A stretch of DNA of 32,635 nt from a virus: the UHGV virus genome UHGV-0186667; one strand, 5' to 3'. This document shows, piece after piece, positions 1,199 through 27,549 of the stretch. Below the pieces are notes generated by a model that made no database searches, was not told the origin of the DNA, and saw nothing but the letters and a program-made list of their open reading frames with translations. The translations under genes were made by a program, and so were the position numbers. The first letter of the stretch is position 1. Each line of letters opens with the position of its first letter.

Positions 1199-1831
1199 TC
1201 AAAGGCTCTTAATGATTTTCAGTGCGCGGCCTATTACCTTAATGTCATCCAGTTCGCACTCAAACGATGAATCATCCTGATGCACTACTAATCTGTTTCC
1301 CGGGAGTCGTGTCAATTTTACAATGCTTTTTATCCCGTCGATGTCCACTAACCACGTACCATTTACTGGTGGTGTTTGGTTGCGATCTATTAAATAAGAA
1401 TCACCAGAAGTAGTCACCAGCAGCAGGTTGCTTGAGTCTGAGGGGAGTATGCTGCTATCAATGATTGCTTTTCCAGCATCGACCAATAAACCACCGTTGA
1501 GAGTTGCCTTTTCAATTTCAGGAGATACAAGCTCAGAAAGAGGTTTAACCTTGCTGGGGTTCACGGAATTGATATTTTTTTTAGGGTCAATGTTTGAACC
1601 TGGCTCGCCCTGTCCGGTGGTTAGCCATAGTAAAGAAACTCCTGTTTCCAAGGCGCACTGAATCACCCATTCTGCGGGAAAGCTATCTCTTAAGTATCTG
1701 TTTGCCATAGTGCTTTTTGATGCACCTAAGTGATCGCAAAGTTGCTGTCTGGACTTGAAATCATAGGCTGCCATTAGTCTGTGGATAGCCTCTCTTCCCC
1801 CTGTATTCTCGCCAGCTTTTACCTGTATCAT
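1199..1831 (-). CDS. CI-type immunity repressor (phage 186 CI-like)
   Basis: 210-aa ORF divergent from apl/cII, with an N-terminal helix-turn-helix-like stretch (SRQQLCDHLGASKSTMANRYL). Start may be the internal Met at 1774. Confidence 0.65.
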   Translation of the reverse strand: MIQVKAGENTGGREAIHRLMAAYDFKSRQQLCDHLGASKSTMANRYLRDSFPAEWVIQCALETGVSLLWLTTGQGEPGSNIDPKKNINSVNPSKVKPLSELVSPEIEKATLNGGLLVDAGKAIIDSSILPSDSSNLLLVTTSGDSYLIDRNQTPPVNGTWLVDIDGIKSIVKLTRLPGNRLVVHQDDSSFECELDDIKVIGRALKIIKSL

Positions 1832-2949: not shown

Positions 2950-3254
2950 GCCCCGGTGAACGCCTGAATGGACTTAATCACATTGCGGAGTTAAGGGCGA
3001 AAGTTTTTGGTCTGAATATTGAGTCAGAGCTTGAACGGTTTATTAAAGATATGCGTGATCCACGGGATATTAATAGCGAACAAAATAAACGGGCACTGGC
3101 TGCCATATTCTTTATGGCAAAAATTCCAGCTGAACGTCATAGCATCAGCATTAATGAGCTGACCACTGACGAAAAGCGGGAGTTGATTAAAGCAATGAAT
3201 CATTTTCGTGCAGTGGTGAGCTTATTTCCCAGACGGCTAACCATGCCGAATTAA
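2913..3254 (+). CDS. Hypothetical early protein
   Basis: 113-aa ORF in the early operon overlapping the previous ORF by 37 nt; no recognisable motif. Confidence 0.45.
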   Translation: MAIEGAAATVPLSPGERLNGLNHIAELRAKVFGLNIESELERFIKDMRDPRDINSEQNKRALAAIFFMAKIPAERHSISINELTTDEKRELIKAMNHFRAVVSLFPRRLTMPN

Positions 3255-3782: not shown

Positions 3783-4636
3783 GCACCATCCTGAAATGGG
3801 CGGGAAATAAAACTGCCATAATGTCAGAACTGAAAAAACACCTTCCTGCTGGCCCGCGACTGGTTGAACCTTTCGCGGGTTCCTGTGCTGTGATGATGGA
3901 GACGGATTACCCCAGCTATCTGGTTGCGGATATTAATCCTGATTTAATCAACCTCTATAAAAAGGTTGCCGCTGATTGTGAATCGTTTATATCGCGCGCC
4001 AGAGTTTTATTTGAGATCGCAAACAGGGAGGTGGCTTATTACAACATAAGGCAGGAGTTTAATTACTCCACTGAAATTACTGATTTCATGAAAGCGGTAT
4101 ATTTCCTGTATCTCAATCGTCACGGTTACCGTGGTTTATGTCGCTATAACAAGAGCGGGCATTTCAACATTCCCTACGGTAATTATAAAAATCCGTATTT
4201 CCCTGAAAAAGAAATTCGCGCATTTGCAGAAAAAGCCCAGCGGGCAACGTTTATCTGCGCCAGCTTTGATGAAACGCTGGCGATGTTGAAGGCGGGAGAT
4301 GTGGTGTATTGCGATCCGCCGTATGACGGCACGTTTTCCGGTTATCACACTGACGGCTTCACTGAAGATGACCAGTATCACCTGGCATCCGTTCTTGAAC
4401 ATCGGTCATCAGAAGGACATCCGGTCATTGTTTCTAACAGTGACACATCCCTGATCCGTTCGCTGTATCGCAATTTTACTCACCACTACATCAAGGCAAA
4501 ACGCAACATCGGTGTGGCAGCTGGCGAGGGTAAATCAGCAACAGAAATCATTGCTGTTTCCGGGCCGCGCTGCTGGGTGGGATTTGATTATTCGCGTAGC
4601 GTGGACAGTTCTGCCGTGTACGGAGTACGTGCATGA
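3779..4636 (+). CDS. dam: DNA adenine methyltransferase (Dam family)
   Basis: N-terminal ILKWAGNK motif, [15 protein letters not shown] block and DPPY catalytic motif (VYCDPPYDG) match E. coli Dam. Start ATG 3779 overlaps the upstream stop (ATGA). Confidence 0.85.
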
Positions 4637-7047
4637 GTCATGCCGATATGAACAACTGCTGCGGCTTTAACGAGGCTGCCGCAGCATTCTCATGGAACAG
4701 CCCGAAAAAAGCCATTAACCCTTATCTGGACCCGGCGGAAGTTGCGCCGGTTTCTGCGCTTTCAAACCTGATCACTCTGTACGCTGCCGATAACGAGCAG
4801 GAACAACTGCGCCGCGAGGCACTGAGTGATCAGGTCTGGGAGCGTTATTTCTTTAATGAATCCCGTGATCCTGTCCAGCGCGAAATGGAGCAGGATAAGC
4901 TAATTAGCCGGGCAAAGCTGGCGCATGAGCAGCAGCGTTTTAACCCGGACATGGTCATTCTGGCAGACGTCAGCGCCCAGCCCTCCCATATCAGCAAGCC
5001 GCTGATGCAACGTATTGAATACTTCAGCAGCCTGGGCAGGCCAAAGGCTTATTCCCGCTATTTACGTGAGACGATTAAGCCATGTCTGGAACGACTGGAG
5101 CATGTACGCGACAGCCAGCTATCTGCATCTTTTCGTTTTATGGCAAGCCATGTAGGGCTGGACGGCCTGCTGATTCTGCCTGAAATGAGTCAGGATCAGG
5201 TGAAACGCCTGTCTACCCTTGTCGCTGCGCATATGAGCATGTGCCTTGATGCAGCTTGTGGTGATTTGTATGCCACCGATGACGTTAAGCCAGAAGAAAT
5301 CCGCAAGACATGGGAAAAGGTGGCAGCGGAAACCCTGCGTCTGGATGTCATCCCGCCTGCGTTTGAGCAACTCCGCCGGAAAAGAAACCGCCGCAAACCT
5401 GTGCCCTATGAACTCATTCCGGGTTCGCTGGCGCGTATGCTGTGCGCCGACTGGTGGTATCGGAAATTATGGAAGATGCGTTGCGAATGGCGGGAAGAGC
5501 AGTTGCGTGCTGTCTGTCTGGTCAGCAAAAAAGCATCTCCCTATGTCAGCTATGAAGCCGTGATGCATAAACGTGAGCAGCGCCGCAAGTCACTGGAGTT
5601 TTTCCGTTCTCATGAACTGGTGAACGAAGAGGGCGACACGCTGGATATGGAAGACGTGGTAAACGCCAGCAGCAGCAACCCGGCGCACCGCCGCAATGAG
5701 ATGATGGCCTGTGTTAAAGGTCTGGAGCTTATCGCGGAAATGCGCGGTGACTGCGCCGTTTTCTACACCATTACCTGTCCGTCACGTTTCCATTCCACGC
5801 TCAATAACGGCAGACCAAACCCAACCTGGACAAATGCGACGGTAAGACAAAGCAGCGATTATCTGGTCGGCATGTTTGCTGCATTTCGTAAGGCGATGCA
5901 CAAAGCCGGGTTGCGCTGGTATGGCGTGCGGGTGGCTGAGCCGCATCATGACGGTACAGTTCACTGGCACCTGTTGTGTTTCATGCGCAAAAAAGACCGC
6001 CGCGCCATTACTGCATTGTTGCGTAAGTTTGCCATCCGTGAAGACCGCGAGGAACTGGGTAATAACACTGGTCCACGCTTTAAATCTGAGCTGATAAACC
6101 CGCGCAAAGGAACGCCGACAAGCTACATCGCGAAATACATCAGTAAGAACATTGACGGGCGTGGTCTGGCTGGCGAGATCAGCAAGGAAACGGGTAAATC
6201 CCTGCGTGATAACGCTGAATACGTTAATGCCTGGGCGTCTCTGCATCGTGTTCAGCAATTCCGCTTCTTTGGTATTCCGGGACGTCAGGCTTACCGTGAA
6301 CTTCGCTTGCTGGCTGGTCAGGCGGCAAGGCAACAGGGTGACAAAAAAGCAGGTGCGCCGGTACTGGATAACCCGCGTCTTGATGCCATTCTGGCTGCTG
6401 CTGATGCTGGTTGTTTTGCCACCTACATCATAAAGCAGGGCGGCGTACTGGTTCCCCGCAAATATCACCTCATCAGAACCGCTTATGAAATCAACGAAGT
6501 GCCAACCGCCTATGGCGATCACGGTATTCGTATTTATGGCATCTGGTCACCCATTGCAGAGGGCAAGATCTGCACTCATGCAGTGAAGTGGAAAATGGTT
6601 CGTAAGGCCGTTGACGTTCAGGAGGCGGCAGCCGACCAGGGCGCTTGCGCCCCTTGGACTCGTGGCAATAACTGTCCCCTTGCTGAAAATTTGTACCAAC
6701 AAGGGAAAGACAAATCAGCTGATGGGGATACCAGAACGGATATTACCCGCATGGATGACAAGGAATTGCACGATTACCTGCACAGTATGAACAAAAAAGA
6801 GCGCCGGGAACTGGCTGCAAGGTTACGCCTGGTGAAACCGAAACGGCGTAAAGACTACAAACAGCGAATTACAGACCATCAGCGACAGCAGCTCGTCTAT
6901 GAACTGAAGTCCAGAGGATTTGATGGCAGCGAGAAAGAGGTCGATTTACTCCTTCGCGGCGGCAGTATTCCGTCAGGAGCAGGCCTGCGTATCTTCTATC
7001 GGAACCAGCGTTTGCAGGAAGATGATAAGTGGCGAAACCTGTATTAA
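4633..7047 (+). CDS. A: Replication initiation protein A (rolling-circle HUH endonuclease)
   Basis: 804 aa. HUH-like motif VHWHLL and paired tyrosines YIAKYISK. Start overlaps the dam stop (ATGA). P2 gene A position. Confidence 0.85.
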
Positions 7048-7903: not shown

Positions 7904-8119
7904 ATGTCAAGCATCGCCGCATTTAGCCTGGGTAACCCAGTTGAACGTCTGGCAAGGGTTCTTAAAGAGAACCAGGACAAACTCAATCTTAGTAAAGATG
8001 GTTTTGTGTCCGTAGACTTGTCTAACAAAAGAGCAATGGATGCCATCAAGGCACAGATGGATAAGCTTGAAGGCATCAAAACGAGCACTGTAAAAGAGAA
8101 AACTAATAGAACCAGATAA
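7904..8119 (+). CDS. Hypothetical small soluble protein, first gene of a two-gene cargo operon
   Basis: 71-aa ORF with strong SD AAGGGGGAG 4 nt upstream; its stop overlaps the next start (TAATG). No recognisable family. Confidence 0.5.
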   Translation: MSSIAAFSLGNPVERLARVLKENQDKLNLSKDGFVSVDLSNKRAMDAIKAQMDKLEGIKTSTVKEKTNRTR

Positions 8120-8961
8120 TGGCAACATTACTTTTAGCAGTGATTTTGGTTAGTGGTTTTATTTATGTAAACCTATCACTTTCAACAAGATACCGATATA
8201 AGCGTTCCAACGGCTGGGACGCTTATTTTTTTGTGGCTGCCTGGGGTATCGTTTTTTTTCTCCTTGGCGGTTTTTTCACCTTTATTTTGAACGTCAGCGG
8301 AGGGTTTCGTTGGCTGGCTAATGCCTTGAATCTAACACCTGACAGTTTTAATGGCATGTTGTCTTCATCGAAAGACAAACTTCAAAGAATAAATGAAATC
8401 AAACAGATAGCATGGGTTATGATTTCAATTGTCCTCGCTGCGATTTCAGGTTTTGGAAATAAGTTACGCACATCACGTGGAGATCGTCGTTGGGATGCCT
8501 TAGCTAAAGCTGTGGGTAATAACGCTTTCGAATCATTACTCATGGAAGCGTCCGCAAGACAGTTTCCGATCATAGCAACTCTGTCGTCTCGCAAAATCTA
8601 TGTTGGTCTTGTTACTTGTCCGGCGTTAGAAAACGGGCTTTCAGAGCACCTTGAACTTCTCCCGATGTTAAGCGGATATCGGGATAAAGATGATCTAACG
8701 ATTAGTATCACGACTAACTATCACCAACATTATCTTGATAGTGGTGTGATAAGTGGAATGTCTCGGCTTAATATCGAAGATTTCCGTGTGCTCATACCAA
8801 AAGATGAGGTTGAAACAATTTCGTTTTTTGATACTGAGACATATAACAAATTTAAAGAAAATGAAGCCAGGGATAGAAAGAACTGTCGAAAGATTGATAG
8901 TAAAAGTGCATCTTCGCGCAGCAAGCGTGCAGCAGATGCTGAGTCAAATGATCGTGCATGA
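8119..8961 (+). CDS. Hypothetical membrane protein with three predicted TM helices and a soluble C-terminal domain
   Basis: 280 aa. Hydrophobic segments at about aa 3-19, 35-57 and 96-112; C-terminal ~170 aa soluble with a basic tail. Visibly AT-rich compared with phage core genes. Confidence 0.6.
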   Translation: MATLLLAVILVSGFIYVNLSLSTRYRYKRSNGWDAYFFVAAWGIVFFLLGGFFTFILNVSGGFRWLANALNLTPDSFNGMLSSSKDKLQRINEIKQIAWVMISIVLAAISGFGNKLRTSRGDRRWDALAKAVGNNAFESLLMEASARQFPIIATLSSRKIYVGLVTCPALENGLSEHLELLPMLSGYRDKDDLTISITTNYHQHYLDSGVISGMSRLNIEDFRVLIPKDEVETISFFDTETYNKFKENEARDRKNCRKIDSKSASSRSKRAADAESNDRA

Positions 8962-9078
8962 CTATGCTGCATGAGATCGCATGATCGTTTGAGGATCGTT
9001 TTTGCTAGGGCCCGCCAGAACTGGCGGGCTTTCGCGTAGATCATGCACCTGCATGAAAACTACTACATAAAGCGGGCA

Positions 9079-9097
9079 GGCGTGGCGGGGATACGAG
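9079..9097. other. Candidate cos (cohesive-end) site
   Basis: GGCGTGGCGGGGATACGAG shares its first 13 nt with the 19-nt cohesive end of phage 186 as I remember it (GGCGTGGCGGGGAAAGCAT). Lies between hairpins and a 16-bp palindrome. Confidence 0.3.
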
Positions 9098-9198
9098 CGC
9101 GCGCAACAGTGTAACAATCTGGATCTAATGTGATATAGTTACTGTAAATATTATTAACTATTCTTATATGCATTATTAAATATTTTAATGGAGCGTTT

Positions 9199-10872
9199 AT
9201 GGAAAAATATCAAGATGAGGAATATGTAGATGATTTAACTGAGCGTGTTTTTCTCATTAAGCAACAACTGGAAGCGGGAAAACTAAAAATAGCTCATCAT
9301 CTTGTAGAAGGTTTTATTGAAAGTTTTAAAAGAATAAGGCTGCGACAGGATGGTAAAGTTGACCCTTCTACTGTTGATGGCAGAATAAGGGCTATGGGAG
9401 CAGCGGTTAATCACTTTTTAGAAAGAGAAGATATAAAAAACAAATACTCTATTCAGGACTTGCAAAGTTCTTACTTTAATATTCTTTTTAGTAATTTTGG
9501 CGAGTTGTTTTATCTGATGAAAAAAACTAATGCAACGCCACATAAAGCATCAAGTTTTTTTTCTCAACAAGAAGAATATGTTAAGCAAATAGAAGATATT
9601 TTTCCTGAGTTATATAATCAGGTAATAGAGTTTTGGCAGGTAACATCCGATATTGGTGTAATACATTTGCAGGATGGTTCTCAGTTTAAAGCTAATTTTT
9701 CTGGTGACTTATTTCCTGCATTTGATGAGAATGCTGTCTCTATTGCAGGGTTGTATGTTGATACTATTTCACTTCCATGTCCTATATTAAGAGTCGGTCG
9801 TCTCTATGAAAAGTCAGATAAGGCTGAGTTTACAAGGATACTTCTGAAGCATGTCCTAACATGTATGACATATAAAGAAGTAGCGCTTGAAGATATAGAG
9901 CCAGCAATAGTATTAATTTTGCCGGATAGAAGAGATTTTGAAACTGAGAGCAAAAAAAATTTGATGAGTTTTTGTGAGCCTTATGCTCTGACTCATGCGC
10001 AATATCTCTATGATCGACGGTTCGAAAGCTACGATGAATTTCGAGATTTTAGTTATTCGATGAATGATATTGATGCTGTTCTTAAAAATATTAAGAGAGC
10101 AGATAGACTTATTTTTGATACAGCATGGGGGCTAAATCCAAAAACTCAATTAGAAAAACTACTATCTGATAAAAAAAGAATATCACGTAATGTTGTTGGT
10201 GATCATGCTGGAATGGAGGTTTTCCTTTCCTGCATTGGAAGAATGCCGCAAGCCTATTCAGCAAAATGTAATGCACAAGAACTTGGTAGTACTCCATATA
10301 TAAATGCAGACACATCTTGGCTCTATTATACTTGGCTTATTGAGTACGAATCTCTTAATTTTGATGTCAATGATATTGAACTAAAAAATTTGCATATGGT
10401 TCATGCGTTATCTGCTGGTATGCAAGATGGTTTTTCATGGTTAGGAAATGTACCGGTCAATAAAATAATTGAGTTGAGACGTAACAAATTGATGGAGGAT
10501 GTAAGATCCATCTTATCAAATGGTGTTGACTCTTTAATCAATTCTTCGGCAGAGAGCTTTTCGAGGACAACGCAAAAAGTAATTGATAATGTAGACCGGG
10601 CTTTTATTGAACATCAAAGGATTCTTGCAAAAGCCCAAAAAGAGAAATTGAGAATTTACGGACTAGATGTCCTACCATGTATCGCAAATGGTGCTATAGC
10701 AATTGCTGGAGCGCTGACTGGCAATACTACTTTAACGGCGTTAAGTGCAGGCCTTGGAGTAATAGGTATTCCGAGTATTAGTGATATCAAATCTAAATTT
10801 AAGCAGAGGCAAGAGAAGCTTGATGCCTATCAACGTTCTGTTACAGGTATACTCTTTAGCCATAAATCTTAA
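9199..10872 (+). CDS. Hypothetical 557-aa cargo protein with C-terminal hydrophobic Gly/Ala-rich segment
   Basis: Long uninterrupted ORF, strongly AT-rich, SD GGAG 5 nt upstream. No Walker A, no YxDD, no recognisable catalytic motif. C-terminal stretch IANGAIAIAGALTGNTTLTALSAGLGVIGIPSI looks membrane-inserting. Confidence 0.7.
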   Translation: MEKYQDEEYVDDLTERVFLIKQQLEAGKLKIAHHLVEGFIESFKRIRLRQDGKVDPSTVDGRIRAMGAAVNHFLEREDIKNKYSIQDLQSSYFNILFSNFGELFYLMKKTNATPHKASSFFSQQEEYVKQIEDIFPELYNQVIEFWQVTSDIGVIHLQDGSQFKANFSGDLFPAFDENAVSIAGLYVDTISLPCPILRVGRLYEKSDKAEFTRILLKHVLTCMTYKEVALEDIEPAIVLILPDRRDFETESKKNLMSFCEPYALTHAQYLYDRRFESYDEFRDFSYSMNDIDAVLKNIKRADRLIFDTAWGLNPKTQLEKLLSDKKRISRNVVGDHAGMEVFLSCIGRMPQAYSAKCNAQELGSTPYINADTSWLYYTWLIEYESLNFDVNDIELKNLHMVHALSAGMQDGFSWLGNVPVNKIIELRRNKLMEDVRSILSNGVDSLINSSAESFSRTTQKVIDNVDRAFIEHQRILAKAQKEKLRIYGLDVLPCIANGAIAIAGALTGNTTLTALSAGLGVIGIPSISDIKSKFKQRQEKLDAYQRSVTGILFSHKS

Positions 10873-10878
10873 TGTAGA

Positions 10879-10907
10879 GGGCCGAGGTATTCGGCCCTTA
10901 GTTTTAT
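10879..10907. terminator. Hairpin terminator between the 557-aa gene and the portal gene
   Basis: GGGCCGA (10879-10885), loop GGTAT, TCGGCCC (10891-10897), then TTAGTTTTAT. The T-tract overlaps the portal stop codon. Confidence 0.45.
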
Positions 10908-11935
10908 ATGAAACTGTATGGCATGAATTTTATTATGTCATCTTTGAGCCATTTATTGAGTTCTTCTATTCTGTTTTGTAGCGGTATCAATTCATTACGC
11001 ATAAAAACCTTACTAGCCTTCTCCACATCCCCAAATCCCCCAACATTATTCGGCATTATCCCCATCATTTGCGGCGGCACTCGGTGTGCTGCCATCATGT
11101 CATCCCGGCTCACGTTCTTGATATTCAAAAATTCATCCTTTGCCGCGACTTCTGATAACGGGATGATTTGAAGCCCGTCCTTTTTGCCGTTAGGCGAGTA
11201 CATAAACAGATTGCGGAAGTTGCCTGGACCTTTGGCGCTTTTCATTGCGTTGCGGAGGTTGTTCACATCCTCCTGGTTCTGCGCGGTATCGGTCATGTAC
11301 ATGATGAAGCCTGCATGGCTGCCGTTGATGTAATACTTACGGCGGAACAGCGTGGCGGACTCGTTGAGCAGGGCTGACGGAATGGCAGAAAGATAGCCGG
11401 GCAGGCCGTAGATCTCCTGGTTAATGTCCGGTTCCATCAGATGAAAAATGCTGCCTTTCGTGAACTGATACGGCTGGGTTGTCATACCGTATTGCACAAA
11501 CCAGTAGGTATCCAGGTCTAACCCGCGTCGGGTGTATTTTGCCAGAGCAGGCTCAAGGGCGATAACTTCACCGAAGCGGTTCGTGCGTTTCTCCAGGTAG
11601 GCGTTACCAAATACCAGATAGTCCTGCACAAAACGTGAAAAAGCCTGCTGGCTGAGCAGCGGATGGGGGATGTAGGTACTGGTCAGAATGTTGCATTTCA
11701 CCGCAATTGGTGAACTGTGATGCACGGCGGCGCGGAAGGTGCGTGCCAGTCCGTCAAAGCTTACTGGCGGCTCATACCAGCGATCTGTCTGTACGCATTC
11801 CACATAGTCCAGTAGTTCGCGGCGGTCCAGAACAGGAACGGGATCACCGAAGCTGAATGCTTCGGCTGTAGTTTGACTTTTATGCTGGATCTGGTTCGTC
11901 GACGCAGCGCGGTTCTTCTTACTCTTTCCCATCAA
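10904..11935 (-). CDS. Q: Portal protein (P2 gpQ)
   Basis: 343 aa (P2 Q is about 344), minus strand, immediately downstream of the terminase gene. Confidence 0.85.
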   Translation of the reverse strand: MMGKSKKNRAASTNQIQHKSQTTAEAFSFGDPVPVLDRRELLDYVECVQTDRWYEPPVSFDGLARTFRAAVHHSSPIAVKCNILTSTYIPHPLLSQQAFSRFVQDYLVFGNAYLEKRTNRFGEVIALEPALAKYTRRGLDLDTYWFVQYGMTTQPYQFTKGSIFHLMEPDINQEIYGLPGYLSAIPSALLNESATLFRRKYYINGSHAGFIMYMTDTAQNQEDVNNLRNAMKSAKGPGNFRNLFMYSPNGKKDGLQIIPLSEVAAKDEFLNIKNVSRDDMMAAHRVPPQMMGIMPNNVGGFGDVEKASKVFMRNELIPLQNRIEELNKWLKDDIIKFMPYSFI

Positions 11936-13698
11936 AAAATCTCCACAATATTACTGGTATTGGCGGACTCGCCCTGCAGTGGTTCGTTAAACAGTGCGTG
12001 CATTGTTGCCCAGGCCAGATCGGCGTGGCTGGCTTCTTCGCTGCGGCTGGCTTCATAGGTCGGGCGGTTGCCGCTGGCGGTGGTGGCGCGACGGATTGCC
12101 ATGAATGACTGCGCAATGTCGGTGTGCCCGGCGTCAAACTCCAGACGGCGGTGGCTGATAATGTCGTAGGCCTTGAGCACCAGGGCGTTTTTAACGTTGG
12201 GGTTGTAGACAAACTCCCGGACGGCAGGAAAGAATGCTTTCACGTTCTCGTAAACCCCGTGACCAACGCCGGTTGAGTCGATACCGATATAAGTCACGTT
12301 GTACTGTTCGGTCAGTTTTTTGATGGCGTCAGCCTGAGCGCGGAAGTCCATCCCGCGCCACTGGTGACGCTCAAGAATGCGGAATTTACCGCCCGGTACG
12401 GCTGGCGGTGCCACCACCACGCATCCGGCACTGTCGCCGTTCTGAGTACCTTTTGCGGGGTCATAACCGATCCATACTTCGCGCCAGCCAAACGGGCGCA
12501 GGGCCAGTGCATGAAAGTCGGTCCAGATTTCCCAGCTGTCCACCATGCACGCCTGCAGTTCGCTGAGCGGGAACACGGACGCGAGATCGTCCACGAACTC
12601 GCACATCAGCAGGTTCTGGTATTCGTCCGGGCTGTACTCCATGCGCAGCTGGTCGAGGTCGAACAGGTTACAGCCGCCGCGCACCGCATCTTCCACGGTG
12701 ACTATCTGGCGGTATTGCCCGTCTGCGCACAGCAGGCCGGGGGCCAGATTGCTGTGGGACAGGTCGATGTCCACCTTGTCAGCTTTGTTGCGTCCACGGT
12801 TGAACAGCGCACCGGACCAGAACGGATAAGCACTGTGGGTCAGGCTGGATGGCGTGGAAAAATAGGTTTGTCGCCATTTCTTGTGAATAGCCATCCCGGA
12901 AGCCACTTTGCGCAGCTCCTGGAATTTCGGGATCCAGAAATATTCATCCAGATACAGGTTGCCGTGGTAACTCTGGGCCGTGCGGGCATTGGTTCCGAGG
13001 AAGTAAAGCGTGGCCCCATTAGGAAGCACCATCGGATCGCCTTTCAGCTCCACCTCCACTTCTTTGGCGAAGTCGATGATGTACTGCTTAAAGACGTGGG
13101 CCTGTGCCTTGCTGGCGGAAAGGAAAATCTGGTTACGCCCGGTTAGCAGGGCGTCAATCAGGGCTTCACGGGCAAAATAGAAGGTCGCGCCGATCTGGCG
13201 TGACTTCAGCAGGTTGCGGATGCGGTTGGTTTTTCCGGCTTCCCACCAGTGGCGCTGGTAGTTGAACATGGAGGAATGGAAGATTTCTTCCAGCTTCTCA
13301 ATCTGTTCATCGGTGAAAACGTTCTTTTCCGGCTGACGGCGCGGGCCTTTGTTGCGGTTGGCGACGTTAGGGTTTAAGTCGGCTTCGTTGCCGCCATTGT
13401 TAAACTTGCCGATCCGCGCATGGCGCTCCGACTGGCGCGCCAGCAGGTCAATCTCTTTGAAATCTTTCCCTTCTTTGTGCTCCTTCATAATGAGCTGGCA
13501 GTAGCGTGCGGCGGTGGTGAGCTGCATCTGATCCAGCGGCCCATAGTCACCCCACTTGTCGCGTTTTTTCCAGCTGTGAACGGTTGCAACTTTCTCGCCC
13601 AGCATTTCAGCAATGCGGGCTACGCGGTATCCCTGAAAGTACAGCAGCATGGCCTGCCGACGGGGATCGAGATCTGCGGGTGTCAGTGTGGTGTTCAT
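11932..13698 (-). CDS. P: Terminase large subunit, ATPase (P2 gpP)
   Basis: 588 aa (P2 P is about 590), minus strand, divergent from the capsid operon. Confidence 0.85.
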   Translation of the reverse strand: MNTTLTPADLDPRRQAMLLYFQGYRVARIAEMLGEKVATVHSWKKRDKWGDYGPLDQMQLTTAARYCQLIMKEHKEGKDFKEIDLLARQSERHARIGKFNNGGNEADLNPNVANRNKGPRRQPEKNVFTDEQIEKLEEIFHSSMFNYQRHWWEAGKTNRIRNLLKSRQIGATFYFAREALIDALLTGRNQIFLSASKAQAHVFKQYIIDFAKEVEVELKGDPMVLPNGATLYFLGTNARTAQSYHGNLYLDEYFWIPKFQELRKVASGMAIHKKWRQTYFSTPSSLTHSAYPFWSGALFNRGRNKADKVDIDLSHSNLAPGLLCADGQYRQIVTVEDAVRGGCNLFDLDQLRMEYSPDEYQNLLMCEFVDDLASVFPLSELQACMVDSWEIWTDFHALALRPFGWREVWIGYDPAKGTQNGDSAGCVVVAPPAVPGGKFRILERHQWRGMDFRAQADAIKKLTEQYNVTYIGIDSTGVGHGVYENVKAFFPAVREFVYNPNVKNALVLKAYDIISHRRLEFDAGHTDIAQSFMAIRRATTASGNRPTYEASRSEEASHADLAWATMHALFNEPLQGESANTSNIVEIF

Positions 13699-13744
13699 GG
13701 CACAAACCTACAGCCTTGAATGAAGGCTTTCCCCGCCTGCGGTT

Positions 13745-13762
13745 TGTGTGGTTGTCGGTACA
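13745..13762. promoter_or_regulatory. Late promoter activator site (Ogr-type TGT-N12-ACA dyad)
   Basis: TGTGTGGTTGTCGGTACA in the P/O divergent intergenic region, centred about 87 bp upstream of the O start codon. Confidence 0.5.
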
Positions 13763-13840
13763 AATACCGCGCATTGTTTCACTGCCCCCATCACCGCAAC
13801 CATAAGGCTCCAGTAAGTTTTTTCTAACGGAGCACGGCTC

Positions 13841-14674
13841 ATGACAGTGAAAGCAAAGCGTTTTCGCATCGGGGTGGAAGGTGCCACCACCGACGGACGC
13901 GAAATCCAGCGTGAATGGCTGGAACAGATGGCAGCCAGCTACAACCCGGCGGTGTATACCGCGCTGATTAACCTTGAGCACATCAAGTCTTATCTGCCGG
14001 ACAGCACCTTTAACCGCTACGGCAAGGTGACGGCGCTGTTTGCTGAAGAAATCACGGAAGGTCCGCTGGCAGGCAAGATGGCGCTGTATGCCGACGTTGA
14101 GCCAACGGAGTCCCTGGTGGAACTGGTGAAAAAAGGCCAGAAATTATTCACCTCTATGGAAGTCAGCCCGAAGTTCGCTGATACGGGCAAAGCCTATCTG
14201 GTCGGCCTGGCTGCCACTGATGACCCTGCCAGTCTGGGTACGGAAATGCTGACATTCAGCGCCAGTGCAGCCCATAACCCGCTGGCAAACCGCAAGCAGA
14301 ATCCTGCCAATCTCTTTACCGCTGCAGAGGAAACGGTGATCGAACTGGAAGAAATCCAGGACGACAAACCGTCCCTGTTTGCCCGCGTCACGGCGCTGTT
14401 TACCAAAAAAGAGCAGTCCGATGACGCCCGGTTCTCTGATGTGCATAAGGCCGTGGAGTTGGTCGCCACTGAGCAGCAGAACCTGAGCGCACGCACCGAA
14501 AAATCCCTGTCTGAGCAGGAAGAACGCCTGTCTGAGCTGGAGACTGCCCTGCAGGCACAGCAAACCGCCTTTAACGAACTGGTGGACAAGCTGAGTCATG
14601 AAGACAGTCGCCAGGACTACCGCCAGCGTGCAACAGGCGGTAACGCCCCCGCTGACACTCTGACCAATTGCTGA
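13841..14674 (+). CDS. O: Capsid scaffold protein (P2 gpO)
   Basis: 277 aa, first gene of the rightward capsid operon; acidic, coiled-coil-like C-terminal half. Confidence 0.8.
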   Translation: MTVKAKRFRIGVEGATTDGREIQREWLEQMAASYNPAVYTALINLEHIKSYLPDSTFNRYGKVTALFAEEITEGPLAGKMALYADVEPTESLVELVKKGQKLFTSMEVSPKFADTGKAYLVGLAATDDPASLGTEMLTFSASAAHNPLANRKQNPANLFTAAEETVIELEEIQDDKPSLFARVTALFTKKEQSDDARFSDVHKAVELVATEQQNLSARTEKSLSEQEERLSELETALQAQQTAFNELVDKLSHEDSRQDYRQRATGGNAPADTLTNC

Positions 14675-17385: not shown

Positions 17386-17878
17386 ACGCTGCCTTGTCGG
17401 GGCCGTGCTGGCTATTGCTGCCACGCTGCCGGGTTTTCAGCAGCTTCACACCTCCGTGGAAGGGCTGAAACTGATTGCCGATTACGAAGGTTGTCGTCTG
17501 CAGCCGTATCAGTGCAGCGCGGGTGTCTGGACCGACGGCATTGGTAATACGTCGGGCGTCATTCCCGGCAAAACCATTACGGAGCGACAGGCAGCAGAAG
17601 GGCTGATCTCCAACGTGCTGCGTGTGGAGCGGGCGCTGGAAAGGTGTGTGAAGCAACAGCCGCCGCAGAAGGTGTATGACGCTGCGGTGTCGTTTGCCTT
17701 CAACGTGGGTACGGGCAATGCCTGCAGTTCCACGCTGGTGAAATTGCTCAATCAGCGGCGCTGGGCGGATGCGTGCCGACAGTTGCCGCGCTGGGTGTAT
17801 GTAAAAGGTGTGTTTAATCAGGGGCTGGATAACCGCCGTGCGCGGGAGATGGCCTGGTGCTTACAGGGAGCAAACTGA
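17366..17878 (+). CDS. Endolysin, lysozyme-like with N-terminal signal-arrest-release segment
   Basis: 170 aa. N-terminus MNPSIVKRCLVGAVLAIAATLPG is a weakly hydrophobic Gly/Ala-rich segment; the body resembles phage 21 R-type lysozymes. Confidence 0.8.
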   Translation: MNPSIVKRCLVGAVLAIAATLPGFQQLHTSVEGLKLIADYEGCRLQPYQCSAGVWTDGIGNTSGVIPGKTITERQAAEGLISNVLRVERALERCVKQQPPQKVYDAAVSFAFNVGTGNACSSTLVKLLNQRRWADACRQLPRWVYVKGVFNQGLDNRRAREMAWCLQGAN

Positions 17879-19648: not shown

Positions 19649-19652
19649 TCTT

Positions 19653-19670
19653 TGTATCAGCAGTGATACA
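19653..19670. promoter_or_regulatory. Candidate late promoter dyad upstream of V
   Basis: TGTATCAGCAGTGATACA, part of a longer palindrome TTGTATCA-GCAG-TGATACAA, 47 bp upstream of the V start. Could also act as a terminator for the S operon. Confidence 0.4.
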
Positions 19671-19716
19671 AGTTGCAGCACTGCCGCCTTTCTTCCCCTG
19701 ATGGCAACCTTTCCCT

Positions 19717-20295
19717 ATGAACGCACAATTAACCGAAATCATGCGCCTTATCACCAACCTGATTCGCACAGGGGTAGTCACCGAAGTGGACAGGGAAAAC
19801 TGGCTTTGCCGGGTGAAAACGGGCGAGCTTGAAACCAACTGGATTAGCTGGCTGACGCTGCGTGCCGGGAATGCCCGCACATGGTGGCGACCATCGGAAG
19901 GTGAGCAGGTGGTGCTGCTGAGTCTGGGCGGCAATCTGGAAACCGCCTTTGCGCTGCCCGCTGTCTATTCGAATCAGTTCGCACCACCGTCGACGTCGGC
20001 GGACGCCTGCGTGACAGAACATCCTGACGGTGGCTGGTTTGAATACGAACCCGCCACCGGGCGCTGGTATGTCAGGGGCATCAAATCAATGGTCATTGAA
20101 GCCGCTGACAACATCACCATGAAAACCAGTGAGTTTGTACTGGAGGCTGACCACACGCGTATTAACAGCGAAGTGGTGATCAATGGTGGCGTTACCCAGG
20201 GCGGCGGAGCGATGAGTTCTAACGGGATCGTGGTTGATGCGCATCAGCATACTGACGTCCTGAAAGGCGGCGATACAACCGGAGGCCCGGTATGA
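19717..20295 (+). CDS. V: Baseplate spike protein (P2 gpV)
   Basis: 192 aa; N-terminal region aligns by eye with P2 V (IRTG, WLTLRAG..RTWW.PS.GEQV). Confidence 0.85.
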   Translation: MNAQLTEIMRLITNLIRTGVVTEVDRENWLCRVKTGELETNWISWLTLRAGNARTWWRPSEGEQVVLLSLGGNLETAFALPAVYSNQFAPPSTSADACVTEHPDGGWFEYEPATGRWYVRGIKSMVIEAADNITMKTSEFVLEADHTRINSEVVINGGVTQGGGAMSSNGIVVDAHQHTDVLKGGDTTGGPV

Positions 20296-21546: not shown

Positions 21547-22144
21547 TCTGCTGCCACCGGGTTCAACACCACTGGAGCGCCGACTGGCGCAAACCTGCAG
21601 CGGGATTTCTGATCTGCAGGTGCCGCTTCGTGATTTGTGGAATCCGGCAACCTGTCCGGTCAGTTTCCTGCCTTATCTCGCCTGGGCGTTCTCTGTGGAT
21701 CGCTGGGACGAGGGCTGGACAGAAAGCGTCAAGCGCCAGGTGGTGAAGGATGCTTTTTATATTCATCAGCATAAAGGGACCACCAGTGCCGTGCGGCGGG
21801 TGGTGGAGCCGTTCGGATTCCTGATCCGCATTATTGAGTGGTGGCAGACCGGAGAGGCACCGGGCACGTTTCGCCTGGATATCGGCGTGCAGGACCAGGG
21901 CATCACTGAAGATACCTATCTGGAACTTGAGCGACTGATAAGCGATGCCAAACCATGTAGCCGCCACATGATCGGCATGTCCATCAATCTGCAGACCAGC
22001 GGCCCGCATTGGGTGGGAGCCGCCAGCTATCTTGGCGAAGAAATCACGATCTATCCGTATATCAACGAAACAATTATTTCCGGCGGCACCGCGCATGAAG
22101 GCGGGGCGGTCCATGTTATTGACACAATGAGAGTGAATCCATGA
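21539..22144 (+). CDS. I: Baseplate protein I
   Basis: 201 aa between J and the tail fibre gene. Confidence 0.8.
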   Translation: MNSLLPPGSTPLERRLAQTCSGISDLQVPLRDLWNPATCPVSFLPYLAWAFSVDRWDEGWTESVKRQVVKDAFYIHQHKGTTSAVRRVVEPFGFLIRIIEWWQTGEAPGTFRLDIGVQDQGITEDTYLELERLISDAKPCSRHMIGMSINLQTSGPHWVGAASYLGEEITIYPYINETIISGGTAHEGGAVHVIDTMRVNP

Positions 22145-23544
22145 GCACAAAATTTTATACCCTGCTGACGGATATTGGCGCGGAGAAACTTGCCAGCGCC
22201 GCCGCGCTCGGTGTGCCGCTAAAAATTACCCATATGGCGGTGGGCGATGGTGGCGGAACATTGCCGACGCCGGACGCAAAGCAGAGTGCACTGGTAAATG
22301 AGAAACGTCGGGCTGCGCTGAATATGCTCTATATCGACCCACAGAACAGCAGCCAGATTATTGCTGAACAGGTGATCCCTGAAAACGAGGGCGGTTGGTG
22401 GATACGTGAAGTGGGCCTGTTTGATGAATCCGGGGCATTGATTGCCGTGGGAAACTGCCCGGAAAGCTATAAGCCGCAACTGGCTGAAGGTAGCGGGCGC
22501 ACTCAGACCGTGCGCATGGTGCTGATTACCAGCAGCACGGACAATATCACCCTGAAAATCGACCCTGCTGTAGTGCTGGCAACCCGCAAGTATGTGGATG
22601 ACAAGGCACTGGAGCTGAAGGTGTACGCGGATGATCAGATGGCAAAACATCTTGCCGCACCGGACCCGCATTCACAGTATGCACCCAAAGAAAGTCCGAC
22701 GTTTACCGGGACACCCAAAGCGCCAACGCCAGCAGCAGGGAATAACACCACGCAGATTGCGACCACCGCGTTTGTTCAGGCGGCTCTGACGGCTCTTATT
22801 AATGGTGCGCCAGCCACGCTGGACACGCTGAAAGAAATAGCCGCAGCCATTAACAATGATCCGAAATTCAGTACCACCATTAACAATGCACTGGCACTGA
22901 AAGCGCCGCTGTCGAGTCCGGCACTCACCGGAACGCCAACCGCACCTACTGCGGCACAGTCGGTCAACAATACACAGATTGCCACCACGGCATTTGTGAA
23001 ATCGGCGATTGCGGCAATGGTGGGTTCTGCACCTGCGGCACTGGATACACTCAACGAACTGGCGGCGGCACTGGGGAATGACCCGAACTTTGCCACGACA
23101 ATGCTTAATGCACTGGCAGGTAAACAACCGCTGGACAATACGCTGACTAATTTGAGTGGAAAGGATGTAGCTGGTCTTCTCACATACCTTGGTTTGGGAG
23201 AAGCAGCGAAAATGCCTGCTGCGACAGCATTAGCCAGCAGTGCAGGTAACATCACTATTCCAGTATTAATTGGTGGAGTACAACGAACAGCATTGCTTCA
23301 GTGGAAGACGCTATCAGTGCCGCAATCTACCGACGGTAATATGGTCGTTGTTGATGGCTCATGGCCGGTTGCCTTTCCTAATGCTTGCCTTTCCATCAAT
23401 CCTTCGCTGGTCAATTCTGTGATCTACGCGACTAATGGAGCCCCTTTTGTTAGCGCAGCGATTGTTGACCGGGTCAAATTCAAAGCCGCTTGCGCATACA
23501 CGAAATCTAATTCAACAGTGGCAGTATGGGGAGTGGGATATTAA
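22141..23544 (+). CDS. H: Tail fibre protein H; the C-terminal ~118 aa lie inside the invertible segment
   Basis: N-terminus resembles P2 H (MAVGDGGG) and later blocks (NDPNFATTMLNALAGKQP) match P2 H repeats. The crossover site sits at codons YLGLGE. Confidence 0.8.
   Translation: MSTKFYTLLTDIGAEKLASAAALGVPLKITHMAVGDGGGTLPTPDAKQSALVNEKRRAALNMLYIDPQNSSQIIAEQVIPENEGGWWIREVGLFDESGALIAVGNCPESYKPQLAEGSGRTQTVRMVLITSSTDNITLKIDPAVVLATRKYVDDKALELKVYADDQMAKHLAAPDPHSQYAPKESPTFTGTPKAPTPAAGNNTTQIATTAFVQAALTALINGAPATLDTLKEIAAAINNDPKFSTTINNALALKAPLSSPALTGTPTAPTAAQSVNNTQIATTAFVKSAIAAMVGSAPAALDTLNELAAALGNDPNFATTMLNALAGKQPLDNTLTNLSGKDVAGLLTYLGLGEAAKMPAATALASSAGNITIPVLIGGVQRTALLQWKTLSVPQSTDGNMVVVDGSWPVAFPNACLSINPSLVNSVIYATNGAPFVSAAIVDRVKFKAACAYTKSNSTVAVWGVGY
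23177..23202. repeat. Inversion crossover site (gix/hix-like), left
   Basis: TTCTCACATACCTTGGTTTGGGAGAA: two 12-bp half-sites around a central dinucleotide. Its right 14 nt are an exact inverted copy of the start of the site at 25008. Confidence 0.7.
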
Positions 23545-23987
23545 TGGTCGACTATGTATTCAGCCCGACGGAAAATGCTTTTTATCTTGTGGCACTGAAA
23601 TATGATTATTTAACTGCTGGCACATGGCCGTCAGACGGCATCAATATAAATGCTGAAGATGCACTGGTTTTCATGGGAAACGCTCCTGAGGGTAAAATGC
23701 GTGGCATTGGTGATGATGGGTTGCCTTGCTGGGTAGATCTTCCGTCACCTACGCATAAAGAACAACTTGCTGCGGCTGACTCAGAGAAAAAGTCGAGAAT
23801 TGACCATGCCAACGAATACATGAACGGTAAGCAATGGCCTGGTAAAGCAGCTATCGGTCGTCTGAAAGGTGAGGAACTGGCACAATATAATTTGTGGCTG
23901 GATTATCTGGACGCACTGGAGCTGATCGATACTTCCGGTGCGCCAGATATTGAATGGCCTACGCCTCCGGCAGTTCAGGCCAGATGA
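23526..23987 (+). CDS. G: Tail fibre assembly protein (chaperone for the current orientation)
   Basis: 153 aa with C-terminal motif LDYLDAL...WPTPP typical of tail-fibre assembly proteins. Confidence 0.75.
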   Translation: MGSGILMVDYVFSPTENAFYLVALKYDYLTAGTWPSDGININAEDALVFMGNAPEGKMRGIGDDGLPCWVDLPSPTHKEQLAAADSEKKSRIDHANEYMNGKQWPGKAAIGRLKGEELAQYNLWLDYLDALELIDTSGAPDIEWPTPPAVQAR

Positions 23988-24561
23988 CATCCGGCGCTGT
24001 GCTGGTATCTGTTGCCGTCACCGCGTCAATGTAATCCAGCACAGCGTTAAGGCGGATTGTTTCTGCCTGCGTCAGCTTCCGTCCGGCCTGTAATTTCAGT
24101 TGAATCAGACTGATGGAGGCCATTGCAGTATCAATCAGCAACGGGCGCTGTGCTTCTGCTGCATCTACTGCTGCGCCGTGCTGTGCCTCGGTATCTGTCA
24201 CCCATTTCTCACCATTCCATTCATCGTATGGCGTTAACGGGGCGATAGTGGTTGTATTTTCAGGATAATCACCCGGAGCTGTGATTTCTTTCGATTCTCC
24301 TGTTTCGGTGCTATAGACGATTTCACCGCGATGATCTGGCACATATTCCCATGAATTTAAATTCACAGAACGACAGATTGCATAACCAACCTTATGTATG
24401 CCAGGTGCATCAAGACAGGAACATGCCGGAATACCGACACCAACAGCAAGATATTCAGTTGACGTGGAAATATATTCCCGTGTTTCACCATCGTAGTTAT
24501 AAACGGTAACATCCCCTGCCTTTGTTGCAATAAGCTCACTATTTAATATTGCTTTATGCAT
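23959..24561 (-). CDS. Alternative tail fibre assembly protein (for the inverted orientation)
   Basis: 200 aa on the minus strand with C-terminal motif LDYIDAV...WPELP; convergent with G and overlapping it by 29 nt. Confidence 0.7.
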   Translation of the reverse strand: MHKAILNSELIATKAGDVTVYNYDGETREYISTSTEYLAVGVGIPACSCLDAPGIHKVGYAICRSVNLNSWEYVPDHRGEIVYSTETGESKEITAPGDYPENTTTIAPLTPYDEWNGEKWVTDTEAQHGAAVDAAEAQRPLLIDTAMASISLIQLKLQAGRKLTQAETIRLNAVLDYIDAVTATDTSTAPDVIWPELPEA

Positions 24562-25021
24562 CAGGCTGCCCTCACGATATAGTTAAATGCAATATTACGC
24601 GGACGGTTTTCGTTTGCAGTTGGAACAACTCTGGAAGCATCAAATGTTACTCGCTTTGCATAACCACCTTTAATTGAATCAGATGAAGCATCTCCGATGA
24701 CGCTGGTTGTAAAAGCACCAGAATCAGAAGGATAGGTATTAAACCTGACATCCACTAATGCACCAATTATATTTCGAATGGCATCGCCCTGTGATGAAAG
24801 CAAGCTACGGTTAGTATCAATTCCTCTTCCGTCATCCCAGCCGCGAATAAACTCACCACGTAAATCAGGCAATTTATTTGTCGGGTAAACTTTTGCCAGT
24901 TCCGGGTATTCTTCAGCAGAAAAAGCCGCACCATTGCATTTCAGCCAGCCTGTTGGCGGAGTGGCTGAAGGCCACGGAACAGGGACACCAACAGGTAATG
25001 CAGAGCCTTCTCCCAAACCAA
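24561..25021 (-). CDS. Alternative tail fibre C-terminal exon, fused to H only after inversion
   Basis: Minus-strand frame reads GLGEGSALPVG... through the crossover site, the same GLGE junction as in H. An in-frame ATG exists at 25061, outside the segment. Confidence 0.6.
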
Positions 25022-25033
25022 CGTTTATGAAAA
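25008..25033. repeat. Inversion crossover site (gix/hix-like), right
   Basis: TTCTCCCAAACCAACGTTTATGAAAA; its first 14 nt are the exact reverse complement of the right end of the site at 23177. Confidence 0.7.
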
Positions 25034-25082
25034 TGCAGAGATAACGGCTAACTGGCATCATCTCCGGTTTTTATTCAGGGGG

Positions 25083-25655
25083 ATGATCATGCTTATTGGC
25101 TATGTACGCGTGTCAACAAATGACCAGAACACCGATTTGCAACGCAATGCACTGAACTGTGCGGGATGTGAGCGGATTTTTGAGGATAAAATCAGTGGCA
25201 CCAAGTCCGACAGACCGGGGCTGAAAAAGCTGCTCAGGACACTATCGGCAGGAGACACGCTGGTTGTCTGGAAGCTGGACAGACTGGGGCGCAGTATGCG
25301 GCATCTTGTTACGCTGATAGAAGAGCTGCGCCAGCGTGGCGTGAATTTCCGAAGCCTGACTGACAGTATTGATACCAGCACCCCAATGGGCCGTTTCTTT
25401 TTTCATGTCATGGGTGCCCTGGCTGAAATGGAACGCGAACTGATAGTTGAACGTACCAGGGCGGGGCTGGCTGCAGCTCGTGCTAAAGGCAGAGTAGGTG
25501 GACGCCGTCCTAAGTTGACCAGCGAACAGTGGGCACAGATTGGGCGTTTACTCGAGGCCGGAGAATCAAGACAGCGTATTGCACTGATTTTTGATGTAGG
25601 CGTTTCTACCATTTATCGAAAATTTCCGGCAAATAAGAACAATAAATCTCCCTGA
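25083..25655 (+). CDS. Serine DNA invertase (Gin/Hin/Cin/Pin family)
   Basis: Near-identical to Mu Gin over most of its length (LIGYVRVSTNDQNTDLQRNAL, VVWKLDRLGRSM, MGRFFFHVMGALAEMERELI). True start may be ATG 25089. Confidence 0.9.
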   Translation: MIMLIGYVRVSTNDQNTDLQRNALNCAGCERIFEDKISGTKSDRPGLKKLLRTLSAGDTLVVWKLDRLGRSMRHLVTLIEELRQRGVNFRSLTDSIDTSTPMGRFFFHVMGALAEMERELIVERTRAGLAAARAKGRVGGRRPKLTSEQWAQIGRLLEAGESRQRIALIFDVGVSTIYRKFPANKNNKSP

Positions 25656-25703
25656 ATCAGCTTTATTTTGATTATCCCTGAAAGCAGACAAATACCGTCA
25701 TTT

Positions 25704-25721
25704 TGTGTGAATAACGGTACA
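25704..25721. promoter_or_regulatory. Late promoter activator site (Ogr-type TGT-N12-ACA dyad) upstream of FI
   Basis: TGTGTGAATAACGGTACA, centred about 85 bp upstream of the FI start; closely resembles the dyad at 13745. Confidence 0.5.
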
Positions 25722-25797
25722 ACTGCGTTTAGCTGTTTGTCAGGCACAATCATTTCAACATAGGGCGAAGCCTAATCCAATCAGGAGGTTCGCCACT

Positions 25798-26970
25798 ATG
25801 GCTCAGGATTACCACCACGGGGTGCGCGTTGTTGAAGTCAACGAAGGCACCCGATCCATTACCACGGTGAGCACCGCCATCGTGGGTATGGTCTGCACGG
25901 GCGATGATGCCGATGCAAAAATGTTTCCTCTTAATAAACCTGTGCTGATCACTGATGTGCTGACCGCCAGCGGTAAAGCGGGTGAGTCTGGCACGCTGGC
26001 CCGTTCGCTGGATGCCATCGCTGACCAGGCAAAACCCGTGACCGTTGTTGTGCGTGTGCCGCAGGGTGAAACGGAAGAAGAAACCACAACCAATATCATT
26101 GGCGCAGTGACCGCCGAGGGTAAAAAAACAGGTATGAAAGCCCTGTTATCTGCCCAGGCACAGCTCGGCGTTAAACCGCGCATTCTCGGCGTGCCAGGTC
26201 ACGACACGAAGGCGGTAGCTACTGAGTTGCTGAGCGTGGCGCAAAGCCTGCGTGGATTTGCTTACCTGTCAGCGTATGGTTGCAAGACGGTGCAGGAAGC
26301 AATCACTTACCGTGAAAACTTCAGTCAGCGTGAAGGAATGCTGATCTGGCCCGACTTTACTGGCTGGGACACGGTGCTGAATGCCGAAGCAACGGCTTAT
26401 GCCACCGCCCGTGCGCTCGGTCTGCGCGCTAAAATTGATGAGCAGACCGGATGGCACAAAAGCCTGTCCAACGTGGGCGTGAACGGTGTCACCGGAATTT
26501 CTGCTGATGTGTTCTGGGATCTGCAGGACCCGGCAACCGATGCAGGTCTGCTTAACCAGAACGATATCACCACGCTTATCCGCAAAGACGGTTTCCGCTT
26601 CTGGGGTTCCCGCTGTCTGAGCGATGATCCGCTCTTTGCCTTCGAAAACTACACCCGCACGGCGCAGGTGCTGATGGACACGATGGCAGAAGCGCACATG
26701 TGGGCAGTGGACAAACCGCTGAACCCGTCGCTGGCCCGCGACATTATCGAAGGTATCCGCGCCAAAATGCGTAGCCTGGTCAGTCAGGGCTATCTCATTG
26801 GTGGTGATTGCTGGCTGGACGAGTCGGTGAACGATAAAGACACGCTGAAAGCCGGGAAGCTCACCATAGATTACGACTACACGCCAGTGCCGCCACTTGA
26901 AAACCTGATGCTGCGTCAGCGCATCACCGATCAGTACCTGGTGAATTTCTCCAGCCAGGTCAGCGCGTAA
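25798..26970 (+). CDS. FI: Tail sheath protein (P2 gpFI)
   Basis: 390 aa; aligns closely by eye with P2 FI ([46 protein letters not shown]). Confidence 0.9.
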
Positions 26971-26979
26971 GGGGACAAC

Positions 26980-27495
26980 ATGGCTTTACCACGCAAATTA
27001 AAACACCTGAACCTGTTTAACGACGGGAACAACTGGCAGGGGATCGTTGAGTCGCTGACGCTGCCGAAATTCACCCGCAAATATGAGAAGTATCGCGGCG
27101 GCGGTATGCCCGGAGCGGTGGATGTGGATCTGGGACTGGATGACAGTGCACTGGATACAGAATTTTCCATTGGTGGTACTGAACTGCTGCTGTTTAAGCA
27201 GATGGGCAAAGCCACGGTGGATGGCATCCAGCTGCGCTTTACCGGCTCTATTCAGCGTGACGATACCGGGGAAGTGCAGGCCGTGGAGCTTGTGGTGCGT
27301 GGACGTCACAAAGAAGTAGATTCCGGCGAGTGGAAGACGGGCGAAAGCAACACTACCAAAGTGACCAGTACCAACAGCTACGCGAAGCTGACCATCAATG
27401 GTGAGGTGCTCTATGAAGTGGACCTGATCAACATGGTGGAAATTGTGGACGGTGTGGACCTGATGGAAGCGCACCGCAACGCCCTCGGCCTCTGA
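26980..27495 (+). CDS. FII: Tail tube protein (P2 gpFII)
   Basis: 171 aa (P2 FII is about 172), directly after the sheath gene. Confidence 0.9.
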   Translation: MALPRKLKHLNLFNDGNNWQGIVESLTLPKFTRKYEKYRGGGMPGAVDVDLGLDDSALDTEFSIGGTELLLFKQMGKATVDGIQLRFTGSIQRDDTGEVQAVELVVRGRHKEVDSGEWKTGESNTTKVTSTNSYAKLTINGEVLYEVDLINMVEIVDGVDLMEAHRNALGL

Positions 27496-27549
27496 TGTAT
27501 CTGAACGGCGCGGAATGCCGCGCCAGAACCTAATTTACAGGACAACAAA

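Follow-up and report, generated by a model that had tools for sequence, protein, structure and literature searches.

The stretch of viral DNA analyzed here, UHGV virus genome UHGV-0186667 (32,635 nucleotides; hereafter the window, meaning the whole stretch), is a P2-like prophage of the Peduoviridae, Elveevirus/Fels-2-like, and extends from int as far as the D stop codon. This identity was deduced from Pfam matches and from the gene order read from the list of open reading frames: int, C, A, then Q/P divergent from O-N-M-L and the genes that follow, V-W-J-I-H-G, and FI-FII-E-T-U-D. At the DNA level, the window shares 96-99% identity with Escherichia phages 500465-1 and Cartapus (Elveevirus) as well as with many Klebsiella prophages, and its gpO is ~45% identical to gpO of P2 and of 186. 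The closest E. coli genome is that of SCU-106, with 99.8% identity across the final 3.1 kb of the window, and relatives of the tail region of the window are present in 1327 of 5426 complete E. coli genomes.

The left part of the window comprises the integrase (172-1197) and CI-type repressor (1199-1831) genes, both on the minus strand, and the replication gene A (4633-7047). The leftward late operon is led by gene P, encoding the terminase large subunit (11932-13698, minus strand; Pfam Terminase_5, Terminase_6N and Terminase_6C), followed by the portal gene Q (10904-11935, minus strand). The three other late operons are read rightward, on the plus strand, and are led respectively by the capsid scaffold/protease gene O (13841-14674; Pfam Phage_GPO, E 3.7e-113; followed by N, M, L and on to S), by the baseplate spike gene V (19717-20295; Pfam Phage_base_V; followed by W, J, I, H and G), and by the tail sheath gene FI (25798-26970; Pfam Phage_sheath_1 and Phage_sheath_1C). 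The FI, FII, E, T, U, D block occupies 25798-32635, and D (31535-32635, plus strand) is the last gene, its stop codon ending on the final base of the window.

Two further regions are worth describing. Between a DinI-like gene and Q, positions 7904-10872 hold cargo ORFs of 71, 280 (8119-8961) and 557 (9199-10872) amino acids; none of the three belongs to a Pfam family, and the 557-aa ORF gave a weak PADLOC match to DitB (E 7e-10). In P2-like phages, this position between the DinI-like gene and Q is a hotspot for defence genes. Further to the right, a Gin/Cin-type invertase gene (25083-25655; Resolvase and HTH_7 domains) adjoins inverted genes within 22141-25655, namely a tail-fibre C-terminus (24561-25061, minus strand, Collar domain) and a tail-fibre assembly gene (23959-24561, minus strand), which face H (22141-23544) and a G-like gene (23526-23987). 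The 22141-25655 region is probably an invertible host-range segment, as in Mu, P1 and Fels-2.

Dyads ahead of the late operons

The four late promoters of P2 (PP, PO, PV and PF) carry a TGT-N12-ACA element and depend on Ogr, a zinc-finger protein with CX2CX22CX4C spacing (PMC3931495). The preliminary description of the window had reported two near-identical dyads of this type, TGTGTGGTTGTCGGTACA at 13745-13762 and TGTGTGAATAACGGTACA at 25704-25721. Both are present and agree at 14 of 18 positions; their distance to the O and FI start codons, given as 85-90 bp, is correct when counted from the dyad centre (87.5 and 85.5 bp), and the claimed match to the P2 late-promoter consensus is borne out by their perfect TGT-N12-ACA form. 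A third perfect dyad that was absent from that list, TGTATCAGCAGTGATACA, lies at 19653-19670, ahead of gene V. The proposal that these elements belong to late promoters is supported, but it was incomplete, since it left out both the PV dyad and the two-way use of the 13745 dyad for PP and PO.

All three dyads share the extended form TTGT-N12-ACAA. The first, TTGTGTGGTTGTCGGTACAA (13744-13763, assigned to neither strand), is centred at 13753.5, 87.5 bp from the O ATG (13841) and 55.5 bp from the divergent P ATG (13698). By analogy with known phages, this dyad is common to the divergent P-Q and O operons, a single predicted site serving both. The PV activator dyad, TTGTATCAGCAGTGATACAA (19652-19671, plus strand, centre 19661.5), has perfect 8-bp arms, begins 5 nt past the stop codon of S and is centred 55.5 bp before the V ATG (19717). 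The PF activator dyad, TTGTGTGAATAACGGTACAA (25703-25722, plus strand), is centred at 25712.5, 85.5 bp before the FI ATG (25798). Three dyads thus head all four late operons: P-Q, O through S, V through G, and FI through D.

A 10-mer, ACAAATACCG, occurs in two of these promoter regions, at 13760-13769 and 25688-25697. The copy at PO overlaps the dyad's right arm, while that at PF closes a one-mismatch dyad, TATCCCTGAAAGCAGACA (25673-25690), whose centre is located 31 bp upstream of that of the PF dyad. This shared 10-mer was found only in the window and in Cartapus.

Chance, conservation and other readings of the palindromes

The dyads might be functionless chance matches to a loose 6-base pattern. 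Consistent with this reading, the bare TGT-N12-ACA pattern is not enriched, with 7 occurrences in the window for 8.9 +/- 2.9 expected from shuffled sequences, and the matches other than the three dyads (8360, 13687, 27014 and 29009) all fall in coding sequence. However, a count at chance level is uninformative by itself, and three of the seven matches coincide with the three short stretches of non-coding DNA in front of the late operons. The extended form TTGT-N12-ACAA, a pattern chosen after the sites had been seen, occurs 4 times in the window for 0.67 expected, a number that none of 100 shuffles reached, and three of the four occurrences are the late promoter sites.

The distances to the start codons are also those of P2 and 186. 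The interval from site centre to the O ATG is 87.5 bp in the window, 95.5 bp in P2 and 87.5 bp in 186; to the FI ATG, 85.5, 82.5 and 81.5 bp, respectively; and to the V ATG, 55.5, 56.5 and 56.5 bp. Using the shuffle background of ~2.7e-4 per position, we estimated the probability that a match falls no more than 10 bp to either side of the P2-derived offset at ~6e-3 per region and, for all three late intergenic regions together, at ~2e-7. The evidence for the dyads is positional, and position outweighs the counts.

Two of the remaining matches were considered as additional sites and set aside. The fourth TTGT-N12-ACAA (8359-8378) lies within the 280-aa cargo ORF, where a promoter role is not obvious, and agrees with the 0.67 matches expected by chance. 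The TGT-N12-ACA at 13687-13704 (TGTGGTGTTCATGGCACA) lies over the P start codon, 58 bp from the centre of the main dyad; it is retained in Cartapus and, with one mismatch, in Fels-2, but the Gegevirus, the Yersinia phage, P2 and 186 lack it, and it probably reflects chance combined with coding constraint.

The same elements were then sought in other phages. Because a search for gpO relatives gave only loci 99-100% identical, too close for footprinting, we turned to whole genomes from other Peduoviridae genera and searched the 170 bp ahead of each P, O, V and FI homologue. Perfect TGT-N12-ACA dyads were found in Cartapus, Fels-2, Klebsiella phage ST258-KPC3phi16.1 (Gegevirus) and Yersinia phage vB_YenM_06.16-2, with centre-to-ATG distances of 85.5-97.5 bp for O, 55.5-64.5 bp for P, 55.5-57.5 bp for V and 79.5-85.5 bp for FI. 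The inner 12 bases vary freely between genera, as exemplified by the V sites TGTATCAGCAGTGATACA, TGTGTCATTTACCACACA, TGTGCCACTGCTGGCACA, TGTATCGTTAATCATACA and TGTGCCACACACCATACA. TTGT and ACA do not vary among 13 unique sites, nine of which have the A after ACA, and the interior is a degenerate palindrome, R-Y-S-R N4 Y-S-R-Y. At the 13745 dyad, TTGTGTG and GGTACAA never vary among 80 near-identical relatives and changes are confined to the central positions. In the 33 kb of Cartapus, the only three TTGT-N12-ACAA matches are its three promoter sites. This recurrence of perfect dyads at the same offsets in four other genera, despite divergent interiors, adds to the position of the dyads at the late-operon heads and to the enrichment of the extended pattern, and makes it barely credible that they are there by chance.

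The pattern of conservation also bears on what the dyads might do. Their palindromic nature raises the question of whether they act as RNA hairpins, i.e. as terminators or attenuators, for instance by ending the O operon after S at 19653-70. The perfect 8-bp arms of the V dyad, 5 nt past the S stop codon, would suit such a role, and a weak terminator-like hairpin overlaps 13756-69. By contrast, the predicted RNAs fold no better than shuffled sequences (z = -1.35, -0.83 and +0.09), the V dyad is not followed by a T-run, the O and FI dyads pair over just 3-5 bp at their ends, and what relatives keep is the identity of the TGT and ACA bases rather than pairing. A hairpin function is therefore most improbable.

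Alternatively, the palindromes could be bound by a host factor such as CRP (TGTGA-N6-TCACA), which would make class I CRP promoters of the late operons. The TGTGAATAACGGTACA within the FI site fits 8 of 10 CRP consensus positions and the O site 7 of 10. Yet the V site fits only 6 of 10, the bases invariant in relatives are the outer TGT/ACA at N12 spacing rather than the inner TGTGA/TCACA at N6 spacing, and the presence of dyads tracks that of ogr: an Ogr homologue directly follows D in every dyad-bearing genome examined, while dyads and an Ogr homologue are both lacking in Pseudomonas phage Dobby. We consider control by CRP or a similar host protein very unlikely.

The predicted activator gene, candidate core promoters and transcript starts

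From the dyads, the preliminary description had predicted an Ogr-like activator encoded beyond the end of the window, and this prediction is well supported by the closest genomes: a 72-aa Ogr_Delta gene is located 69 bp past D in near-identical prophages. The window itself contains no Ogr homologue, the best tblastn match to the Cartapus and P2 Ogr queries having an E-value of 1.2, and a six-frame search for the CxxC...CxxxxC pattern returned no ORF with a matching C4 pattern. In Cartapus, the 72-aa gene 69 bp past the D stop codon is annotated as 'P2 Ogr-like protein'; its product matches PF04606 (Ogr_Delta; E 9e-21), has the CX2CX22CX4C spacing and is 56% identical to P2 Ogr. In CP019275, too, D is followed 69 bp on by a 72-aa gene. 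Four contigs with a 100% identical gpD all encode one and the same Ogr-like protein of 72 aa at that position, and in two of them an Ogr_Delta gene is called there. In SCU-106, an 'ogr/Delta-like zinc finger family protein' is encoded 69 bp past D, followed by ssrA. Finally, ST258-KPC3phi16.1 (MK433581.1) bears an unannotated Ogr homologue, 83% identical to that of Cartapus, between D and the next annotated gene (1495-1710, minus strand).

Past D, the closest genomes carry, in this order, ogr, a hypothetical gene of 160 aa, ssrA (tmRNA) and smpB, which places the prophage at the ssrA attachment region. In relatives, a TTGT-N8-ACAA element, TTGTGTATCATTACAA, occurs in the spacer between D and ogr.

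The sites might also be recognized mainly by an activator other than the prophage's own Ogr, such as a P4 delta-like satellite protein or another phage regulator. The P2 late promoters are also activated by P4 delta and phiR73 delta, acting at these very sites, which speaks for this idea. So does the frequency of P4-like satellites, which are common in Enterobacterales (PMC8628076). Nevertheless, a satellite protein would supplement activation by Ogr, not substitute for it, and the cognate ogr adjoins D in every relative examined; we regard a foreign protein as a very improbable main recognizer. The dyads are very probably, by analogy, the binding sites of the phage's own Ogr-family zinc-finger activator and constitute the upstream element of P2-type late promoters.

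A consensus scan detected no sigma-70 consensus promoter in any of the three dyad regions, as expected of activator-dependent promoters. In an alignment anchored on the dyad centre, each of the four promoters shows a candidate -10-like hexamer beginning 43.5 bp from that centre, and we placed the transcription start sites 7 nt past each hexamer. For PO, the candidate is CAACCA (13797-13802, plus strand), with a putative start at ~13809; for PP, TAGGTT (13705-13710, minus strand), with a putative start at 13698, the A of the P ATG; for PV, CAACCT (19705-19710, plus strand), with a putative start at 19717, the A of the V ATG; and for PF, CAACAT (25756-25761, plus strand), with a putative start at ~25768. 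PO and PF have in common a TGTTT near the -35 position and the sequence CAAC(C)ATA(A/G)GGC.

P2 late activation requires contact with the alpha subunit of RNA polymerase, as revealed by the rpoA109 phenotype. Drawing on the biology of P2, 186 and P4 for Ogr binding, start sites and contact with the alpha-subunit C-terminal domain, we infer that transcription would begin ~55 bp from the dyad centres, at ~13809, 13698, 19717 and ~25768. After prophage induction and replication, Ogr would be made from the gene predicted just past D, outside the window, and would bind each TGT-N12-ACA dyad, centred near -55. Bound Ogr would then turn on the head and tail genes by recruiting RNA polymerase, through the alpha-subunit C-terminal domain as in P2, to promoters that have a weak -10-like hexamer and no usable -35 element. 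The 13745-62 dyad would be used both ways, leftward for P-Q and rightward for O through S, while 19653-70 would drive V through G and 25704-21 would drive FI through D.

The four start codons are not equally equipped for translation. A Shine-Dalgarno sequence precedes the O ATG (GGAG) and the FI ATG (AGGAGG), and none is found before the P or V ATG. The P and V ATGs are each exactly 55.5 bp from a dyad centre and 6 nt after a -10-like hexamer. A P start further upstream is impossible, owing to an in-frame stop 3 codons before the P ATG; the N-terminus of the window gpP aligns with that of P2 gpP, and its Terminase_5 domain starts at residue 11. Based on the 55.5-bp distances, the hexamers 6 nt before the ATGs and the lack of Shine-Dalgarno sequences, the P-Q and V through G mRNAs could be leaderless, starting at the A of the ATG, in the lineage made up of the window, Cartapus, Fels-2 and the Yersinia phage, a prediction to which we give slightly less credence than to its converse. 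If true, the 13745 dyad would drive a leadered O transcript in one direction and a leaderless P transcript in the other. The P2 gene V mRNA is a classical leaderless mRNA, and the predicted leaderless P transcript is the only mildly new point here; the literature searched gave no usable primary paper on Ogr footprints or on the leaderless P2 gene V mRNA.

The value of these assignments lies mostly in annotation, all four late promoters now being located in a very common type of E. coli/Klebsiella P2-like prophage. With the refined site consensus, TTGT-RYSR-N4-YSRY-ACA(A), late promoters of Peduoviridae could be annotated, and promoters that respond to Ogr or delta could be sought in satellites or among host genes. 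The prediction of leaderless P and V transcripts is a small, testable addition.

Comparison with known late-promoter systems

The arrangement in the window closely parallels that of P2: the operons are the same, one site is placed to serve P and O in both directions, a consensus -35 is lacking, and ogr, which directly follows D in P2, is predicted to do so here. In the P2 GenBank record, one activator site (3057-3087) is given for both pO and pP, with transcription starts at 3127 (O) and 3016 (P), each 55.5 bp from its centre. The pV site (10239-10266) is associated with a start at 10308, which coincides with the V ATG, its centre being 55.5-56.5 bp away, and the pF site (17555-17583) with a start at 17626-28. 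In the 186 GenBank record, a 20-bp B site (3798-3817) activates both pV and p12, and a second one (14091-14110) activates pJ, whose start is at 14159.

The annotated P2 and 186 sites, as read from the sequence, are TGTGTCAGTGATAAGCCA, TGTGCTGTCGATTAGCCA, TGTGTGGGCGGTTGTCCA and TGTGCCAGACATCATCCA. Their left half is TTGTG, as in the window, and CCA stands at the position of the window's ACA. The dyads of the window are perfect TGT-N12-ACA, whereas P2 sites read TGT...CCA and the spacing of the P2 pV site is altered. The sites of P2 and 186 themselves are imperfect, hence the consensus is loose.

The window departs from P2 in other respects. Its P ATG and the centre of the site are 55.5 bp apart, compared to 78.5 bp in both P2 and 186, which would imply a P mRNA devoid of leader; in P2, only V is annotated as leaderless and the P leader is 23 nt long. 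Moreover, identity to P2 is only ~45% for gpO and ~56% for the Ogr of the relative Cartapus.

Phage 186, whose late promoters are p12/pV, p32 and pJ, resembles the window in its B sites, GTTGTGTGGGCGGTTGTCCA (p12 and pV) and GTTGTGCCAGACATCATCCA (pJ), which begin with TTGTG(T/C)G as the window sites do, in their offsets of 87.5, 78.5 and 81.5 bp, and in having, like the window, no gene between the S and V homologues. It differs in that the right half of its sites is CCA or missing, and in that its B gene is under CI repression.

The same TGT-N12-ACA element, together with an activator of the Ogr/Delta family, is found at P4 Psid and PLL (delta), at PSP3 Pag and in Smp131 (PMC3931495). In Smp131, a Stenotrophomonas phage, a single site read on both strands has been predicted for PP' and PO' (PMC3931495). 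These are other elements in other hosts, and they were compared through the cited text (PMC3931495).

Close parallels exist with Fels-2 (Felsduovirus) and Cartapus (Elveevirus), whose records carry no late promoter annotation. Both have a near-identical P-O intergenic region, dyad offsets of 87.5, 55.5, 55.5 and 81.5-85.5 bp, an Ogr-like gene 69 bp after D and a Gin-like invertase ahead of FI. The inner bases of their V and FI dyads are not those of the window, and Cartapus has an additional gene between S and V. Taken together, these comparisons support the late promoters of the window as one more example of the known Ogr/B/delta system of late promoters, in its textbook arrangement.
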